From: a virus
Virus genome (UHGV): UHGV-0346409
DNA: 44,226 nt
Direction: 5' to 3' (one strand)
Of this stretch, positions 1,722 to 16,035 are shown in pieces. Each line of letters opens with the position of its first letter. Within the stretch, counting starts at the first letter, position 1. The position numbers were made by a program, and so were the translations under genes. The notes under the pieces were generated by a model, which searched no databases, was not told the DNA's origin, and saw only the letters and a program-made list of their open reading frames with translations.

Positions 1722-1904
1722 TTATTTCTGATTAGGCGTAATCAGTTCTGGTGGGGGGAATGCCGATTTCTCCCGCGTGACCTTAATGTTTTCTGGCAGG
1801 TGTAGCCCAAGTTCGCAGCGACTCCGTGCTTCAATAATGCCATTGGTACCATCGGCAAGTACCAGGTGAACCGCGTCACCACGCTTTAATGTGAGTTTAA
1901 GCAT
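1722..1904 (-). CDS. Hypothetical protein (60 aa)
   Basis: ATG start overlaps stop of upstream gene (TAATG), consistent with translational coupling in the early-left operon. Confidence 0.45.
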   Translation of the reverse strand: MLKLTLKRGDAVHLVLADGTNGIIEARSRCELGLHLPENIKVTREKSAFPPPELITPNQK

Positions 1905-2473
1905 TAGCGTACCCTCAGCGAACGTTCGCCGCGTTCCAGATGTGCGCCTGGTACCGGGTTTAATAACTCGGCTGGTGGTGTTTCTCCACGCGCCAGTATT
2001 TCGGCGGCAACCGCCTCCGCAGATTCAATCACTTCTTTAATGGCTCGCTTGTTTGGTGTAATAACCGTTTCTACATCAACAAGTGACACGCCTTCATACT
2101 CATCCGGGATCTTATCTTTGCTATCGATAATTACCCGGATAGCCCCCTGTGCATCAGTAAATGTGTTTTTTGCGGTTTTTAGTTTATCCAGGCCAGCAGC
2201 TTGCAGGCAGGCGAGCATATGCTTCCGAATTGCTTTTTCCTTGCCTTCAAAGGACGTCTTACGGGTAGCCAGGCGAGACATTTCTTCAGCGCAGGTACTG
2301 GCATTGCCCTGTAAATTGCGGCAGATGACCATCATGGCGTCCAGTTTGTCTCCCAGTTCTCCTTCCATACCTTCAAGTGTGTCGGCGATCATCTCTGGCG
2401 TCAGTTCGTCGGAGGTTTCCAGCAGGTCAATCAGGCTGGCGTATTCTTTTGCAATAGCGATAGCGGTGCTCAT
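1904..2473 (-). CDS. Gp157-like protein (siphovirus Gp157 family, recombination-module associated)
   Basis: 189-aa acidic helical protein whose N-terminus resembles Gp157-family proteins that accompany ERF/RecT in phage recombination modules (recall); coupled to the upstream ERF-like gene. Confidence 0.45.
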   Translation of the reverse strand: MSTAIAIAKEYASLIDLLETSDELTPEMIADTLEGMEGELGDKLDAMMVICRNLQGNASTCAEEMSRLATRKTSFEGKEKAIRKHMLACLQAAGLDKLKTAKNTFTDAQGAIRVIIDSKDKIPDEYEGVSLVDVETVITPNKRAIKEVIESAEAVAAEILARGETPPAELLNPVPGAHLERGERSLRVR

Positions 2474-4692
2474 GCTGTTTGCTCCTGTGCGGCGGCGAGA
2501 GCGGCGAGGCGTTCGGTTTTGATTTCATTCAAACGGCGCAGGCGCGAACCAAGATAAGTTGAATACTCCTTATCACCTTTGGATTCTGCGGCTTTGCGGT
2601 GAACTTCTACTTCCCGCGCAATAAGGCCATAGACTTTATTAACTTCATTGGGGGTTACGGCTGCAGCCAGTGTTTTGGCAACACCTGAGAGTCGTTCATC
2701 CAGTTCTTCACGCAGTCGGGTAGCATCCTCTGCTTTCTCGCTTGCCTTCTTAATACCGTATTCTGTATTCAGCTCGGCGGTGTAGGCACTATCGTTATGC
2801 ATATCCATATAAACATCTGCCGCAAATCCCAGATGAGATAGTGCTTTGACGGTGGCATCAGTAAGAGACTTTTTGGAGGCCTCTTTTTCCATTACCAGTG
2901 CCCCTTTGTTATTTTTTGATATGTAATCCGTGTGGCCATATGACGGAATAAATCCTTTCACTCCGTTCCAGACGTACCAGAGATCTATCCGGATGGTGTG
3001 TACTGACAGGCAGAACAGGGAGCCGTCAGCATCCCTGACAGGTTTTTGTCCAATAATTTTCCCTGTCTGATCCTGTATAGGTTCAAGTAATGGCACACCG
3101 CGATCCACTCGCTCCTCCTTGATTTCAACTCCCCAACCAATGCCTTCCATTCCCAGCACTTCAGTCGCACGCATCAAAATATATTGTGCGCGTATGGAGT
3201 GCAGTCCTGCACCGTAATCATTATGTGTGACATACGCAGGATCGGTCCGCTGAACGCGATTCCAGATAGCCAAATTTGCTTTGCTCTGGTCATCATTCAT
3301 TGCTGACAGATAATGCTCCATGCGAATTGATGCAGTTTTTTCCTCGGTATGGATCCGCTCAACCAGAGCGTCAACGTTCTGCACCAGGTCTTTTACCTGC
3401 TCGCTAAGTTTTTCTTGTGGAGGAGTCTCTTCTTCCAGGATAACAGTTACAGATTCCCGCTGTGATACGGCGTTATTTTCTGGTACGCCATACACATGGC
3501 GGGGCGTGACAAACTGCTCACGCAACTGCTGCAAACTACGCTCTCCAGCATTTGCTGCTTCGCTTTTTTCGCCCTGATTTGAGGGGGGTTCTGACATCAT
3601 CCCATCGATTGAGAATCGCCCGCCGCCGTGGTTGGTGACTTTTACATCACCCTTTGGTGCTGCGTCCTTTGGCTTCTCTTCAACAGCATTTGCATCACGC
3701 TGCCCGTTAGCTTGCAGCCAGTTGTCGATGTGACTGCGCAGGGATTGCGGGAAATGGTACGTGTCTTTTGCGGGGGCACTCTGAACGACACCGAATACGG
3801 ATGCCCGGTCATAGGAAAGGATCTGATCCGTTGTGCGCAAGGCCATTGACCAGCGTTTAAAATCCTCCCGATCCTGGCTGATTATTTCGTCTGCCGCTTT
3901 CAGGACGCTGGGGGTGATTTTTTCCGGGCCAACGGGTAACAGAGCGCAGGCAATTTCACGATCCAGTGTAGCGTGAGTCTGTTTGTAAGGACGTGCGGAT
4001 GCTGTTTCTGGTTTTACCTCCGGCAGCATTTCATCGCGTTTACCGGGATTCTCTACCCATTTTTTTATAAATTTGGAGATAGTCCAACTGGTCGGGTTTT
4101 GTTCCTGGGTATCGCAACTTGCCAAAATTGCATGTACCAGATTATTCAATCCAGCAATATGCATGTACTCGATGGGCTTACACGCCACCATGGCATCAAG
4201 AACGATGCGGTTAAACGCGTCAACCTCATCCTCACTGTCAGTATCACTGTTGTCGAGCATCTCCAGGTATTCACGCGTCTGCGCAAGCAATTCACTGTTG
4301 ACTTCGTTGGCGTCGTGGCTGAACAGCAGAACGGCGGCGAATCGTTCACGAGCCGGCAGTTTCATCAGGTCGTTAACCTGTGCGATATCTGCTGAACCGC
4401 TATCTACAACGGGGGTGTTAACTACCCATTTTTCGCCATCAAAACTGTGTTCTGTGGCGAACGTCTCATCAAACTCACCAACGCCTGGGCGCGGTTGGCC
4501 CGGGGCATCTTCCCAGATTTTAGGTTTGAAATAGTTGTCGCCGTGGTCAGGGTAGGCTTCCCACAATTTGCCGATGATGATGTTCTCGGCAACTTTTTTG
4601 TTAGGGGCGTCGATGGCGATGGCCAGCGCCGGGATCGCGCCGTTTTTGAGCGCGCCTTTTTTCGCTTCTAACAAGCCGTTAAAAATGGTCAT
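2470..4692 (-). CDS. Large recombination protein with ERF-like single-strand-annealing domain in its C-terminal half and an N-terminal ~430 aa of unknown function
   Basis: 740-aa ORF; region around aa 450-640 (NDYGAG..IRAQYIL.., ..KKSLTDATVKALSHLGFAADVYMD) resembles the ERF family by recall; preceded by ATGAGGAAAGACCA motif. Confidence 0.5.
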   Translation of the reverse strand: MTIFNGLLEAKKGALKNGAIPALAIAIDAPNKKVAENIIIGKLWEAYPDHGDNYFKPKIWEDAPGQPRPGVGEFDETFATEHSFDGEKWVVNTPVVDSGSADIAQVNDLMKLPARERFAAVLLFSHDANEVNSELLAQTREYLEMLDNSDTDSEDEVDAFNRIVLDAMVACKPIEYMHIAGLNNLVHAILASCDTQEQNPTSWTISKFIKKWVENPGKRDEMLPEVKPETASARPYKQTHATLDREIACALLPVGPEKITPSVLKAADEIISQDREDFKRWSMALRTTDQILSYDRASVFGVVQSAPAKDTYHFPQSLRSHIDNWLQANGQRDANAVEEKPKDAAPKGDVKVTNHGGGRFSIDGMMSEPPSNQGEKSEAANAGERSLQQLREQFVTPRHVYGVPENNAVSQRESVTVILEEETPPQEKLSEQVKDLVQNVDALVERIHTEEKTASIRMEHYLSAMNDDQSKANLAIWNRVQRTDPAYVTHNDYGAGLHSIRAQYILMRATEVLGMEGIGWGVEIKEERVDRGVPLLEPIQDQTGKIIGQKPVRDADGSLFCLSVHTIRIDLWYVWNGVKGFIPSYGHTDYISKNNKGALVMEKEASKKSLTDATVKALSHLGFAADVYMDMHNDSAYTAELNTEYGIKKASEKAEDATRLREELDERLSGVAKTLAAAVTPNEVNKVYGLIAREVEVHRKAAESKGDKEYSTYLGSRLRRLNEIKTERLAALAAAQEQTA

Positions 4693-4722
4693 TGGTCTTT
4701 CCTCATTACAGGTCAGTGGTTT

Positions 4723-5043
4723 TTAGTAGGGGAGCTCATCGGTATCTGGCGTGTATTCGATGCAAAGTAACTGCTGGATTTTGTCATCGATAGCAGCAAT
4801 ACGCTGTTGAGCGTCGGCGGCTGTATTCTGTTTTTGCTCACGCAGCTGCTCGACCTGCAAACCGATGATGTCGATTGGCTGGGGCTGGTTGACGGTAATT
4901 TCAATTTCGCGGCTTTCCAGAAGGATGTACCTGTCTGGAAAATTTTTTGACATATCAACCGTCGCAATAAACAGCTTTTCATGGCTGAAAGTTGAAGTTG
5001 CATAATGAATAAAGAGTGTTACTGGGATGGTGCGCGCTTCCAT
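4723..5043 (-). CDS. Hypothetical early protein (106 aa)
   Basis: ORF with AAGGAG 5 nt upstream of ATG. Confidence 0.5.
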   Translation of the reverse strand: MEARTIPVTLFIHYATSTFSHEKLFIATVDMSKNFPDRYILLESREIEITVNQPQPIDIIGLQVEQLREQKQNTAADAQQRIAAIDDKIQQLLCIEYTPDTDELPY

Positions 5044-6039
5044 AGCGACTCCTTGGTGATGTATACTCGGGACCGATCAGCGAATATTGATCAGCTTCCA
5101 TAGCGTCAGTGTCGTTGGTCTTTCCTCATCACAAGTTTGGTCACTTGTGATAAATCCGAATGGTTTGGTCGCCGTTCGGGGTAACTGGCCCGCCTTGTGC
5201 GGGTCTTTTGCTATCTAAAGGGTGCCGGTTACGTTTCCGGCGTCGTTATGTTTCCATCACGACCGTACGGGGCTGGTCTTTCCTGTTTTGAGCTGGTCAG
5301 GCTCATGGTCAACGCTGGTCAGGCGTGGTACTTCCTCCGGTCTTTCCCTGGTGTCACGCTGCGGGTTTGGCCTCTCCTGTTGGGGACTCAGGCACAGCGA
5401 TAAAACCTGGCTGTGTGAAAAAATGGCCCATCGTGCGGACTGGGCAAAGACTAAACACAGCAAATTGATGATGGGCGCCCGGAATCGAACCGGGTAACGG
5501 GCAGGGAGTTCCCGTTAAACACCTGTTCACCACAACCGGGAGCGCACTCCGCCATTTCAAAATTTAACGACAAAGCTCAAAGTTGAGTCGATGAAGTGCG
5601 CTCTCGTGTTGTAGCCAGGACTCTTCCCTGGTGGTCACACCGTATCGCCTTGATGGTGAATCAATCGCTCATACCTGGCTGTGGCTTGCACATTCCGGCT
5701 ACCTGCTATGGAGACAACGCGTTAAGGCTCCGCTTCCATCCAGACCGCTTCGACACATGTGCCATATGCCGGCGAAGTCTTTCCCTCTGTCATCGTGTTG
5801 GCGCCGACGCGCAAAATTTGATGCCGTCTTTCCGGCTGTCAGAACGTGTTTCTGAACAACTGCCGCTGGGTAAGCGTTGTTGATGAAAGTGACTTTACAA
5901 TTTGTATTTGTAATGGTCAACGTATTTTTAAAAAATAATTTGTAGTTAGGGGCAAAAAAATATTCACTGTGTAAAGGTGTTTTTGTGTTAGGGGGAAAGT
6001 TGCATGCCAGCAGCGGCTGGCCTGAAAATTTGAACTGAA

Positions 6040-7317: not shown

Positions 7318-7356
7318 GCGCCTGACCAGCGTTTAACTTATACCGAGGAAAGACCG

Positions 7357-7581
7357 ATGTTAAGACATATTGACCGCATTACCTGGCGTAACGGCTGGCA
7401 CCTGAATGGGCGCCCGGCACATGTTGCAGAGATCCAACCTATTTTTGATGGGCGTATGGCTGCCGCGCTTTCGGTGTGGGAGCAGTATGAATCCAGGAAG
7501 GTCGAGTTGCGCGACAAAGGGCTGAGCAATGCGGACTATGAAGCCGGTTGTCGTCAGATAGCCGAAGCTCTGGAGATCTGA
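7357..7581 (+). CDS. Hypothetical protein (74 aa)
   Basis: ATG preceded by CCGAGGAAAGACC motif. Confidence 0.5.
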   Translation: MLRHIDRITWRNGWHLNGRPAHVAEIQPIFDGRMAAALSVWEQYESRKVELRDKGLSNADYEAGCRQIAEALEI

Positions 7582-10036: not shown

Positions 10037-10074
10037 CCACGCATGACCAGCGTGAAATAACCGAGGAAAGACCA

Positions 10075-11339: not shown

Positions 11340-11431
11340 ATTGACTTAGAAAAAGCCCGGGGCTATAGTTTCCGCGCAGCCGCAAAATCGGTTGCCGGGA
11401 TTTGCACCCCGGATATCTAAAAGGCGACAAC

Positions 11432-11451
11432 GACGCGCCAGCGTCTTTTTT
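11432..11451 (+). terminator. Rho-independent terminator candidate
   Basis: GACGC-GCCA-GCGTC hairpin followed by TTTTTT. Confidence 0.5.
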
Positions 11452-11611
11452 ATTGTCGTGCGCACAGCCACATCCGCGATTTATGGTGGGGCGTGTAGGG
11501 GAGTCGAAAGGCTCGCCGGGTCCTTTTAGCCGGTAGTGCAAACCCTGCATGTCTCACCACCCAAAGATTTGCACCTGAGGGGGGTGATTATCCGACTAAA
11601 AGGAAATCGCT

Positions 11612-13507: not shown

Positions 13508-14133
13508 GAATTCCCTTTAGAGTAAGGATTGGTTTTTAAGACGCGGTCTGTAATCAGTTCCGAGAGCTACAGTAAACAACGCTGAGCACTGAACGCATCA
13601 CAGGCAAGGTAAAAGGTGATATCGGCAAAGGCTGTGAAACCTTTAATTCAACAGATGGGAACGGTATGCACAGGATCCTGTAACGACGCTCCCAAAACCG
13701 GAAACCTGTAAGGCATGTTTTCGCTGCTGAACTTAATATACGAACCTGCACTATCATGAACATATTTTATATCGTTATACCCCGAGTGATTGTGCCCGGC
13801 AATGGATAGTGTCCTGGAGGAACTATTTCTACTGTAAAAGGTAGACATTTAATTTCAGTGTGGAATTATTCCCTGCTGTTAATAACCATGGCTCTATATG
13901 GCACCGAGCGGACTAGTTAACTTGCCTGAAAGCCGCTATGAGTGAGGAGCGAATATTGGCACGATAGGATACCTGAACCATTTTTTGGACATGCGCTAAA
14001 AGCGAATGATTAGTTTTATCGGAATATTTACAGTATACTTACAAGGCAAGCTTGGCGTACCGTCTTGGGCGAGATTGCTTAAATTATTTTGTGGATATAT
14101 CATTCAAACAAAAGATAATAAAATGAGGTTGTT

Positions 14134-14331
14134 ATGTCATATATTCGCGTAGAGAAAGATGGCCTTCAGTATGAAGCAGAATACTTCCGTGAAGAGGATA
14201 TGGTCACAGTCTTTGGGGTTAGAGGAGGGCATTCCAGCGTGGTTCTAAATGGAATGACAGAAGTCGCGGCTGCTCGTACTGCGTTACGAAATCTTATTAG
14301 AGAAAATCAGGTTGATCCTCTAACTGATTAA
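14134..14331 (+). CDS. Hypothetical protein (65 aa), AT-rich cargo gene
   Basis: GAGG RBS; possible promoter-like elements upstream. Confidence 0.45.
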   Translation: MSYIRVEKDGLQYEAEYFREEDMVTVFGVRGGHSSVVLNGMTEVAAARTALRNLIRENQVDPLTD

Positions 14332-14535
14332 AAATAAGCCATCTTAACTGAGAGCATATTTTGATATAATTTAGATTAAATCTATTTTGAAGGTTAGTTT
14401 GGGATGAGAAGATTACATCAAAACCGTTATTACTAGCAATAAGTTGTGTAAATCAAATAATACATAATCAGGTGGTAATATATACTAAGCGTAGTAAAGT
14501 TTTTATATATTCCTGTAACTTTGTGAGAAACTTCC

Positions 14536-15201
14536 ATGAAAGCCGACAACTTAAGAATTATAGAGAATGGCAAATATGTTTTCGATATGTTCTTGGATAC
14601 TGGTGAATTTTACTATACAAGTCATGCCTTTGACACGAGAGAAGATGCAAAAAGCTGGATGGAAGAATGGCAGATTTGGGCAAATAATGTATCGAGTGGG
14701 AAAGTAAGTAGTATTTATTATATTTTACAAGTGCCTGATACTTGGGCCGGTTCTTCAGATAAAAATAACCCTTACTCGGGACTTTATGTGAAAATAGGGC
14801 GTTCCAATAATGTGCTAAAAAGGTTGTCTAACCTGCAGACAGGTGCATTTGGTCAATTAATATTACACGCTTTGGAACCAGGTGGTTCAGAAAAAGAAAA
14901 CTATCTTCATGAAAAATTTAGCAACGAAAGACGTCAAGGTGAATGGTTTGTTTGTACTAAGGAACTTACCAAGCATATATTTACAACATGGTTTAAAAAC
15001 AAAATGCTCCCACCAGAACATCAAATAAAAATAATGCAGCTCGCAGAAAGAATAGGTATTTATTCGCATGTTCATACACTAATGGGGGGGAAGCCAGACT
15101 TAGTAAACCCATCTATTAGTGAACCTTGGGAATGCGAAAAATATGTTTTGGTTGATATGATTTATAGCTCTTTAGCAAAGCAAGTTAATCATAAAAAATA
15201 A
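14536..15201 (+). CDS. T5orf172-domain (GIY-YIG-like) protein with unknown N- and C-terminal extensions
   Basis: Central region IYYILQ..GLYVKIGRSNNVLKRLSNLQTG..LHEKFSNERRQGEWF matches the T5orf172/MUG113 signature (recall); AT-rich coding sequence. Confidence 0.6.
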   Translation: MKADNLRIIENGKYVFDMFLDTGEFYYTSHAFDTREDAKSWMEEWQIWANNVSSGKVSSIYYILQVPDTWAGSSDKNNPYSGLYVKIGRSNNVLKRLSNLQTGAFGQLILHALEPGGSEKENYLHEKFSNERRQGEWFVCTKELTKHIFTTWFKNKMLPPEHQIKIMQLAERIGIYSHVHTLMGGKPDLVNPSISEPWECEKYVLVDMIYSSLAKQVNHKK

Positions 15202-15521
15202 AGTGTTACATTTTAACTATACAATTATTGATTCACTAATGAAGAGGTGATTTAGACGTATGAAGTTTTAATAAGCTCCAAGAATATTTTGTCATACATG
15301 GGTTAAAGAGTTATATAATAATATCTGCTTCTGGAACACAGCAGACAAGCACCTGCAGATAAAGGTCTGCTGAGAGCGAGAAGCGGATCATACGTTGGAA
15401 GTTGTTTAGGCAAATACGTTATAAACGTATTTGATTAAATTTACTTGGATCATAGTCTTCAATAACGCTTTATTATATTGTTTTTCATGCAGCAAACAGG
15501 TTCACAGGTAGGTAATAAGCT

Positions 15522-15926
15522 ATGAGTGGATGGAAAGAGCCTTTTACATTAGCAGAACAGATACAATTAGCATTAAATTTAGGTTATGAGGCTGTACCAG
15601 ATGAAGAGGCATATACTGGGGCATACTTCATTAAAGGTGGTAAGAAGTGGATCTTTAACATCATCGGTCTCAAAAAGACATTGAATATATCTTCAGATGA
15701 TGAACTAAGAGGGCAGGATTATGATGTTGATATGTATTTCGAAATTCGCCAAAATTGGGCACAATACCAAGATATGATCTTTGGAAGCGAAGATATCACT
15801 CCTTCACCTAAAAATGAACTTACTTCAATTTACCATGACCTGCAGGTAACGGATGAACCCAGGGAAATGGTGTATCTTTCTGATGGGATGTGGCTGGATC
15901 CCAACGGACGAATTGTACAACGATAG
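15522..15926 (+). CDS. Hypothetical protein (134 aa), acidic, AT-rich cargo gene
   Basis: ORF with AGGTAGG upstream; no recognisable motif. Confidence 0.45.
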   Translation: MSGWKEPFTLAEQIQLALNLGYEAVPDEEAYTGAYFIKGGKKWIFNIIGLKKTLNISSDDELRGQDYDVDMYFEIRQNWAQYQDMIFGSEDITPSPKNELTSIYHDLQVTDEPREMVYLSDGMWLDPNGRIVQR

Positions 15927-16035
15927 CACTCGAACACACTCAGTAATCGTCTATAAGGCCAGCACTTGTTACTTGGTCATTTGGGGTTGCTGGTCTTCTC
16001 CATTAAATCGACTAAAGTCTGTTCCATAGAGAGAG

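Follow-up and report, generated by a model that had tools for sequence, protein, structure and literature searches.

The virus genome UHGV-0346409, a 44,226-nucleotide stretch of DNA that was analysed as a whole and is called the window below, is an Escherichia coli prophage located beside a tRNA-Ser gene (tRNA at 94-180), with mtfA on the chromosomal side. Its early-left operon, on the minus strand, contains an uninterrupted open reading frame (ORF) of 740 amino acids (aa) at 2470..4692, matched by phrog_2489 across its full length (E=0), in which a RecE-type N-terminal region is fused to a domain with a predicted Rad52-like annealase fold. An initial annotation, made from the sequence alone, had described this ORF as an unusually large recombination protein next to a Gp157-like gene, with an ERF-like annealing domain in its C-terminal half and an acidic N-terminal half that matched nothing recognisable. 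The ORF was found on the minus strand as described, with a GAGGA ribosome-binding site 7 nt 5' of its ATG.

Read from the repressor side, the operon runs from about 1 kb without convincing ORFs (5044-6039) through a 106-aa gene (4723..5043, minus strand, phrog_2479), which lies directly upstream of the fusion, to the 740-aa gene, a Gp157-family gene (1904..2473, minus strand), a 60-aa gene, a DUF4224 gene and the integrase. No exonuclease gene accompanies the fusion in this operon. The identity of the Gp157 neighbour was borne out by Sipho_Gp157 (PF05565, E 2.5e-28) and phrog_253. The TGA stop of the 740-aa ORF overlaps the ATG of the Gp157 gene in the sequence ATGA, and the latter has its own AGGAG site; the overlapping stop and start codons suggest that the two genes are coupled translationally.

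The same gene order, from small gene(s) through the fusion, Gp157 and further small genes to a DUF4224/xis-like gene and an integrase, is common to five other loci (Salmonella, a JGI isolate genome, Morganella, a metagenome contig and Pectobacterium phage ZF40), the DUF4224/xis-like gene being present in contigs long enough to include it and the integrase seen in four of these loci. The far side of the locus carries a YdaS/YdaT-type immunity region and DnaB in three genomic loci, cI/CII-like regulators and DnaB in ZF40, and a repressor pair alone in the short metagenome contig. Gp157 is the invariant downstream partner of the annealase fusion: it adjoins the fusion or annealase also in Salmonella, Morganella and ZF40, and an annealase-Gp157 pair is found in Pseudomonas phage PseuP_222. 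The Gp157 family is labelled as 'Mu Gam-like' end protection in PHROGs, RefSeq and the ZF40 record, and a Gp157 profile search of the PDB returned nothing meaningful.

The possibility, raised at the outset, that two genes had been joined by a sequencing frameshift is excluded, because the ORF recurs with 100% identity in seven complete E. coli genomes, which come from cattle, humans, dog, chicken and yak, and because full-length homologues exist, sequenced phages among them; the 740-aa ORF is real. A partial or full match to the gene occurs in 456 of 5426 complete E. coli genomes (~8%), and the first 120 matches of a protein search are all full-length homologues, 710-757 aa long (>100 clusters; Salmonella, Klebsiella and Raoultella). 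Among phages, ZF40 gp07 is a full-length homologue with 34% identity over aa 1-725 and is followed by the 'Mu Gam-like' gene, and Stenotrophomonas phages BUCT708 and BUCT709 carry a full-length homologue with 45% identity. Invariant and conserved positions are spread across both halves of the family proteins.

Broken versions of the fused gene were found in three further loci, through an in-frame TAG (L006, 5971-5973 of that locus), a frameshift with a 95-nt overlap (L008, 6001-6095) and an in-frame stop (L009, 2942-2956). Stand-alone annealase genes in Enterobacterales had been considered as a natural split of the gene, but all three cases examined are these single-mutation derivatives of the fused form. 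An internal start for a short annealase was likewise rejected, the closest GAGGA lying 19 nt 5' of M458, which is too far. A homologue search with the C-terminal domain gave just 8 proteins, a yield that probably reflects the candidate selection made by the search tool.

Predicted domains and their relatives

The C-terminal half comprises a Rad52-like single-strand annealing core (aa 471-632; 2797..3282, minus strand), with a beta-beta-beta-alpha topology and the signature helix EASKKSLTDATVKALSHLGF, followed by a three-helix tail (aa 633-740; 2473..2796, minus strand) that corresponds to helices 185-289 of the AlphaFold2 (AF2) model of this half and holds many invariant positions. The model has a mean predicted local distance difference test score (pLDDT) of 80 and contains the beta-beta-beta-alpha core; in structure comparison its best signals were RAD52 and Mgm101, the remaining high scorers being helical-bundle proteins that matched the tail. 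The features of the Rad52 N-domain fold, namely this core together with the DNA-binding helix, are thus present in the prediction, and aa ~471-632 are predicted to take the Rad52/Mgm101 annealase fold, with the conserved three-helix tail behind it. Family-invariant positions in the signature helix include K607, K608, T611, D612 and K616.

Searches for the ERF family were negative throughout. With Pfam at E<=10, the whole protein and both halves gave no ERF and no other family; with Pfam and NCBIfam together, no ERF, RecT, Rad52 or nuclease family exceeded its threshold; and ERF (PF04404) also had no match in 13 relatives at E<=1. A 45-sequence alignment of the domain compared by hhalign gave an off-register match alone against P22 Erf (probability 0.2%) and nothing against RecT. 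The sole Pfam family to recur among the relatives was Rad52_Rad22, which appeared below threshold in 3 of the 13 (best E 0.013, 15.9 bits against a cut-off of 20.3). As modelled, the C-terminal domain is a Rad52-superfamily annealase and not a member of the ERF family. The lack of an ERF domain, which the initial annotation had named as refuting its reading, is literally the case and its ERF label falls, while its broader claim, a large recombination protein whose C-terminal half holds an annealase, survives.

Many Pseudomonas phages, among them F116, PMG1, LKA5 and PseuP_222, encode stand-alone homologues of aa 472-725 at 31-34% identity, and most of the matching phage records are Vibrio phages. 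The homologues in F116, PMG1 and PseuP_222 are ~210-250 aa long and, as with the window fusion, each is followed by Gp157; the PseuP_222 protein, with a Gp157-family gene directly next to it, was named 'RAD52-like annealing protein' by its depositors. In PHROGs the same region (aa 471-725) is matched by phrog_7838, a 242-aa family, which like phrog_2489 is labelled 'exonuclease'. The tail is conserved along with the annealase and is kept up to aa 705-725 in the stand-alone phage homologues, and may serve as an oligomerisation element or as a contact for partners or single-stranded DNA-binding protein (SSB). The window protein shares the predicted core and signature helix with the Rad52 superfamily, as represented by the N-domain of human RAD52, yeast Mgm101 and phage Sak; it differs in adding ~450 N-terminal residues and in scoring below the Pfam Rad52_Rad22 threshold.

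The hidden Markov model (HMM) scan and structure prediction suggested for the N-terminal region revealed three folded domains and a disordered linker, with homology to the N-terminus of RecE, so that this half does not match nothing, as had been supposed, but matches the YdfE_N/RecE N-terminal module. In the AF2 model of aa 1-450 (mean pLDDT 70), D1 (aa 1-92; 4417..4692, minus strand) is a small alpha/beta domain that opens the module, D2 (aa 106-224; 4021..4377, minus strand) is all-helical, with AF2 helices at 114-222, an isoelectric point (pI) of 4.57 and a net charge of -10, and D3 (aa 233-335; 3688..3996, minus strand) is helical and the part best conserved with RecE. Behind D3 comes a disordered acidic linker (aa 336-427; 3412..3687, minus strand; pLDDT 30-43). 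The half is acidic as first described, aa 1-430 having a pI of 4.94 and a net charge of -21.6. A nuclease, one of the modules suggested for this region, was found in it neither by HMM nor by fold. The acidic helical D2 is tandemly duplicated in the Salmonella homologues P0029 (828 aa) and P0031 (804 aa), with the insert after D2, and in homologue P0072 a divergent D2 copy takes the place of D2.

Several comparisons connect this region with RecE. Positions 260-370 of the NCBIfam exoVIII model NF007259 match aa 230-335 (E 5e-13), the RecE-type PHROGs phrog_607 and phrog_2082 match the D3 stretch, and D3 aligns with residues 254-352 of K-12 RecE (hhalign E 1.3e-5, probability 81%; BLASTP E 0.007). 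A search with aa 1-331 recovered Serratia 'RecE family exodeoxyribonuclease' fragments aligned from residue 1 through D3, and K-12 RecE 1-380 used as the query directly matched several annealase-bearing proteins. PF06630 ('Exonuc_VIII') covers the N-terminal ~200 residues of RecE-type proteins, i.e. D1-D2; it does not match the window protein directly, and 38 proteins that carry it are among those found with a profile of aa 1-340. The RecE N-terminal arrangement of a PF06630-type D1-D2 followed by a conserved D3 is therefore present. PF27430 (YdfE_N) has a precomputed match on all 120 listed homologues, which are up to 96% identical to the window protein, and K-12 YdfE matches over D1 (BLASTP E 3e-8). 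Judged by these sequence matches, aa 1-335 are three folded domains homologous to the N-termini of the RecE family and to the YdfE remnant of K-12.

The closest known systems can be compared accordingly. RecE (exodeoxyribonuclease VIII of the Rac prophage; PF06630 and DUF3799) has a homologous three-domain N-terminus followed by a long disordered acidic linker, and its gene occupies the same place in a Rac-like early-left operon, between the repressor/YdaS/YdaT side and the xis-like and int genes; however, RecE continues into a PD-(D/E)XK exonuclease and has RecT downstream, whereas the window protein has a Rad52-like annealase and Gp157. YdfE, a pseudogene of the K-12 Qin prophage that shares with the fusion its location just upstream of the prophage integrase, has a homologous D1 and the start of D3 (E 3e-8), but is truncated by IS2E and has lost its original C-terminal domain. 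The ydfE gene (locus L015, 5079-5999) is thus a remnant of a gene with a RecE-type N-terminal module, and is the namesake of the Pfam families YdfE_N (PF27430) and YdfE_C (PF27432).

Portability of the N-terminal module

Among 1.84 billion representative proteins, the aa 1-340 profile found 219 clusters; the 150 of them that were listed were sorted by C-terminal content with Pfam and local HMM searches. Among these 150, the module was joined to a Rad52-like annealase as in the window protein in 25 clusters, to the PD-(D/E)XK nuclease of RecE (DUF3799) in another 25, to a DnaQ-like 3'-5' exonuclease (Rv2179c-like) in 15, and to a long tail without a Pfam domain in 38, while 47 were short fragments. 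One uncharacterised domain is common to 31 of the 38 long tails (P0204, P0208, P0217, P0284 and 27 further representatives); this fourth C-terminal domain has the motifs LSGRTDVM ... EIH.VATTILD.WSD ... QQL..AAL.G.CANP and no Pfam match. RecT was reported by Pfam in 1 of 73 scanned members and was not recovered by a local jackhmmer search with K-12 RecT. One protein, P0216, unites PF06630 (E 5e-77) with a Rad52-like annealase, and this architecture, together with the matches of K-12 RecE 1-380, indicates that the annealase is also found behind canonical RecE N-termini.

Exchange is also seen within the annealase-bearing family. Compared with P0002, the window protein has N-domains that are 96-97% identical, a tail that is 74% identical and an annealase core of only 37% identity, whereas with P0013 the N-domains are 47-72% and the annealase core 78% identical. 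On these identities, the annealase core is exchanged as a cassette independently of the N-terminal module.

The linker holds a conserved short motif, GRFSIDGMMSEPPSNQGEK, at aa 358-376 (3565-3621, minus strand). In the form G.FS...LM..PSN.GEK it recurs across proteins with different C-terminal domains, and SN.GEK is found in 33 of 141 representatives and in the homologue consensus. A second linker motif, G(E/D)(F/Y)V(D/E)GISDP(N)DPKWV, occurs at aa 464-473 of K-12 RecE and in the linkers of some annealase fusions (P0032 and P0059) and is absent from the window protein. A lead from a 2026 paper on a 'miniRecE' (E121-T222) that stimulates homology-directed repair was set aside, since full-length K-12 RecE has P and L at these positions; the residues were probably numbered on a truncated RecE, and the lead is uninformative on the N-terminal module.

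Proposed role and alternatives

The gene is likely to encode the strand-annealing component of a prophage recombination module that has no nuclease: a RecE chassis whose exonuclease has been replaced by a Rad52-fold annealase. Rad52, Sak and Mgm101 form ring oligomers, bind single-stranded DNA (ssDNA) and anneal it independently of ATP; by analogy, the C-terminal domain would assemble into oligomeric rings and, with no need for ATP, anneal complementary strands of the ssDNA that it binds. As the module has no exonuclease of its own, the ssDNA could be supplied by host nucleases or replication forks, and Gp157 may protect DNA ends or block a host nuclease. The N-terminal module would not act on DNA itself, but might serve as an acidic protein-interaction scaffold that brings the attached end-processing domain to a common host or phage partner. 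This is the weakest step of the proposal. In its favour are the acidity of the module, its occurrence with four or more unrelated effector domains, and the length and disorder of the tethering linker, which bears a conserved short motif.

A number of results weigh against this interpretation. No sequence model places the window protein in Rad52_Rad22 above threshold, and searches of the PDB by sequence, with the single protein and with a profile, found nothing. The hhalign match to RAD52 is co-linear but of low probability (E 0.031) and was made with a RAD52 sequence not drawn from a database record; in this same alignment, ATE.FG..G.GW falls on ANEMFGYNGW and KKSLTDA.KKALS.LG on KEAVTDGLKRALRSFG. 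The likeness of Gp157 to Mu Gam was not reproduced (hhalign with a 7-sequence Gp157 alignment, probability 0.7%), although with so shallow a profile this is a weak negative. The N-terminal module gave no informative structural match, and for this reason its role is conjecture. Biochemical or genetic data for any member of the family were not found.

The literature contains a group with which the fusion can be aligned, although no paper was found that describes the family as an annealase fusion. The 'RecE-2' proteins of lambdoid phages are distantly related to RecE, have no nuclease domain and are given as having 'roles not known' (Zheng, Casjens, Davidson, Amundsen and Smith, 2025, PMC12315714). 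The window protein is likewise RecE-related and without a nuclease, the difference being that its C-terminal domain is here identified as a Rad52-like annealase. The RecE-2 proteins probably include ZF40 gp07. In the same survey of lambdoid recombination modules, ZF40 has an anti-RecBCD gene and no strand-annealing protein (PMC12315714), and the present comparison suggests that gp07 is the missing one. This would supply the annealing protein for ZF40-type lambdoid recombination modules.

Of the alternatives, the one that fares best, though still unlikely, is that the N-terminal region is an anti-RecBCD, DNA-mimic or other anti-defence module that makes the protein self-sufficient in RecBCD+ hosts. 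The strong acidity of this half and of its helical D2 would suit such a role, as would the absence of an exonuclease from the module, a situation shared with P22 Erf and its Abc proteins. The same module is, however, present on RecE, which is classically active in recBC sbcA strains and is not known as a RecBCD inhibitor. Moreover, a separate gene for presumed end protection, Gp157, is already there, comparison of structures turned up no Gam, Abc2, Ocr or other mimic, and PADLOC gave no matches, though it does not cover anti-defence proteins.

Membership of the annealase in the ERF family, with a mode of action like that of P22 Erf, is improbable. One superfamily is considered to unite ERF, Sak, Redbeta and Rad52, ERF being a superfamily-level relative (Lopes et al., 2010, PMC2896510), and the combination of an annealase with an anti-nuclease function in the absence of a phage exonuclease is that of P22 Erf with Abc1/Abc2 (PMC12315714), so that the functional class may be the same. 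Nevertheless, P22 Erf belongs to another annealase family by every test run: PF04404 is absent from the protein, its halves and the 13 relatives, the hhalign comparison is off register, and the top structural and sequence signals are RAD52 and Mgm101. In addition, the window module has no Abc homologues and Erf has no RecE-type N-terminal module.

There is very little to be said for the fusion being a decaying or non-functional prophage relic, in which a RecE gene was disrupted by recombination with an annealase gene. The three single-mutation split forms and the pseudogene status of K-12 ydfE would fit with decay, but the intact architecture is kept at 34-60% identity in Escherichia, Salmonella, Klebsiella, Raoultella, the Stenotrophomonas phages and ZF40, which was isolated from an induced lysogen; conserved positions run throughout both halves, and the conserved coupling to Gp157 argues for selection.

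Finally, that the protein is an exonuclease which resects ends like RecE, as the labels of phrog_2489, RefSeq ('exonuclease family protein') and the ZF40 record ('exonuclease') have it, is scarcely credible, since its true homology to RecE over aa 1-335 is limited to the non-catalytic N-terminal region, the RecE C-terminal nuclease (DUF3799; RecE 564-866) is absent, Pfam gives no DUF3799/PD-(D/E)XK (PF12684) or DEDD match on the protein, a jackhmmer search from the K-12 RecE nuclease domain gathers 25 other proteins and no homologue of the same architecture (the window protein itself lying outside the searched set), the C-terminal fold is Rad52-like rather than that of a nuclease, and RecE-2 proteins without a nuclease domain have likewise been reported (Zheng et al., 2025, PMC12315714). 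Proteins of this family are frequent and have entries in both Pfam and PHROGs, albeit under a wrong annotation. The 'exonuclease' labels are probably wrong, and the assignment to the Rad52-like annealases would correct a label that is widespread in PHROGs, RefSeq and phage records.

Beyond the reading of this gene as an annealase on a RecE chassis, a more general proposal can be put forward tentatively, with the balance at present somewhat against it. The YdfE_N/RecE N-terminal module may be a portable adaptor, carried by a 5'-3' exonuclease, a 3'-5' exonuclease, an annealase or an uncharacterised domain, that does the same nuclease-independent job on each, e.g. recruiting a partner through its folded domains and linker motif, and the 106-aa protein, the fusion and Gp157 may together, as a three-gene cassette, amount to a complete recombination system without an exonuclease. 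As the module joins an annealase, two unrelated exonucleases or another domain, its function cannot depend on a nuclease, which narrows the hypotheses for the unexplained N-terminal region of RecE and is relevant to direct-cloning technology. If the adaptor proposal is true, the annealase fusion would be a natural separation-of-function variant, and it would become testable what the N-terminal two-thirds of RecE do and why linear-linear recombination rises with them. The three-gene cassette may also be usable for recombineering, and is a candidate exonuclease-free tool for Enterobacterales.

The 106-aa gene and other features of the prophage

The 106-aa gene lies immediately upstream of the fusion in four further loci (L003, L006, L008 and L009) and in Stenotrophomonas phage BUCT708, so that the two co-occur in E. 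coli, Salmonella, Morganella and this phage. Its product has no Pfam match and, on comparison, is not RacC-like. Every copy ends in an acidic tail followed by (L/I)P(Y/F), namely TDELPY in the window and ESDIPF, NELPF, EALPY and EEIPY elsewhere, endings that resemble the C-terminal tip of bacterial SSB, ...DDDIPF. The 106-aa protein could be a phage SSB-like protein or a mimic of the SSB tail, and its gene is, tentatively, a possible third member of the recombination module.

Further upstream, the ~1 kb that separates the 106-aa gene from the repressor gene (5044..6039) lacks RefSeq annotation and, on the transcribed strand, any convincing ORF; it is 97-100% conserved in 448 complete E. coli genomes. 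When folded as minus-strand RNA it gave z = -3.47, from 20 shuffles only. Within it, 33 nt at 5769-5801 are identical to a sequence annotated 'CRISPR' in E. coli strain EC2001, a match that is probably to a spacer.

The octamer GGAAAGAC is present in the window in 9 copies against 1.24 expected, a number reached by no shuffle. Seven copies are on the minus strand (1514-1521, 4695-4702, 5118-5125, 5276-5283, 5340-5347, 5777-5784 and 5826-5833) and two on the plus strand (7347-7354 and 10065-10072), and all nine are oriented with early transcription. Four of them precede an ATG, three at 2 nt and one at ~1 nt (the 740-aa ORF, the DUF4224 ORF and the ORFs at 7357 and 10075), while five lie within the ORF-free 1 kb and have no start codon after them.

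Elsewhere on the plus strand, Rfam identified the Hfq-binding small RNA isrK at 11376-11451 (76 bits) and, beside it, a C4 antisense RNA at 11479-11564 (74 bits), both above the gathering score. A low-GC island at 14001-16000, with a GC content of 0.35-0.37 compared to ~0.50 in the rest of the prophage, is possibly cargo or a moron.

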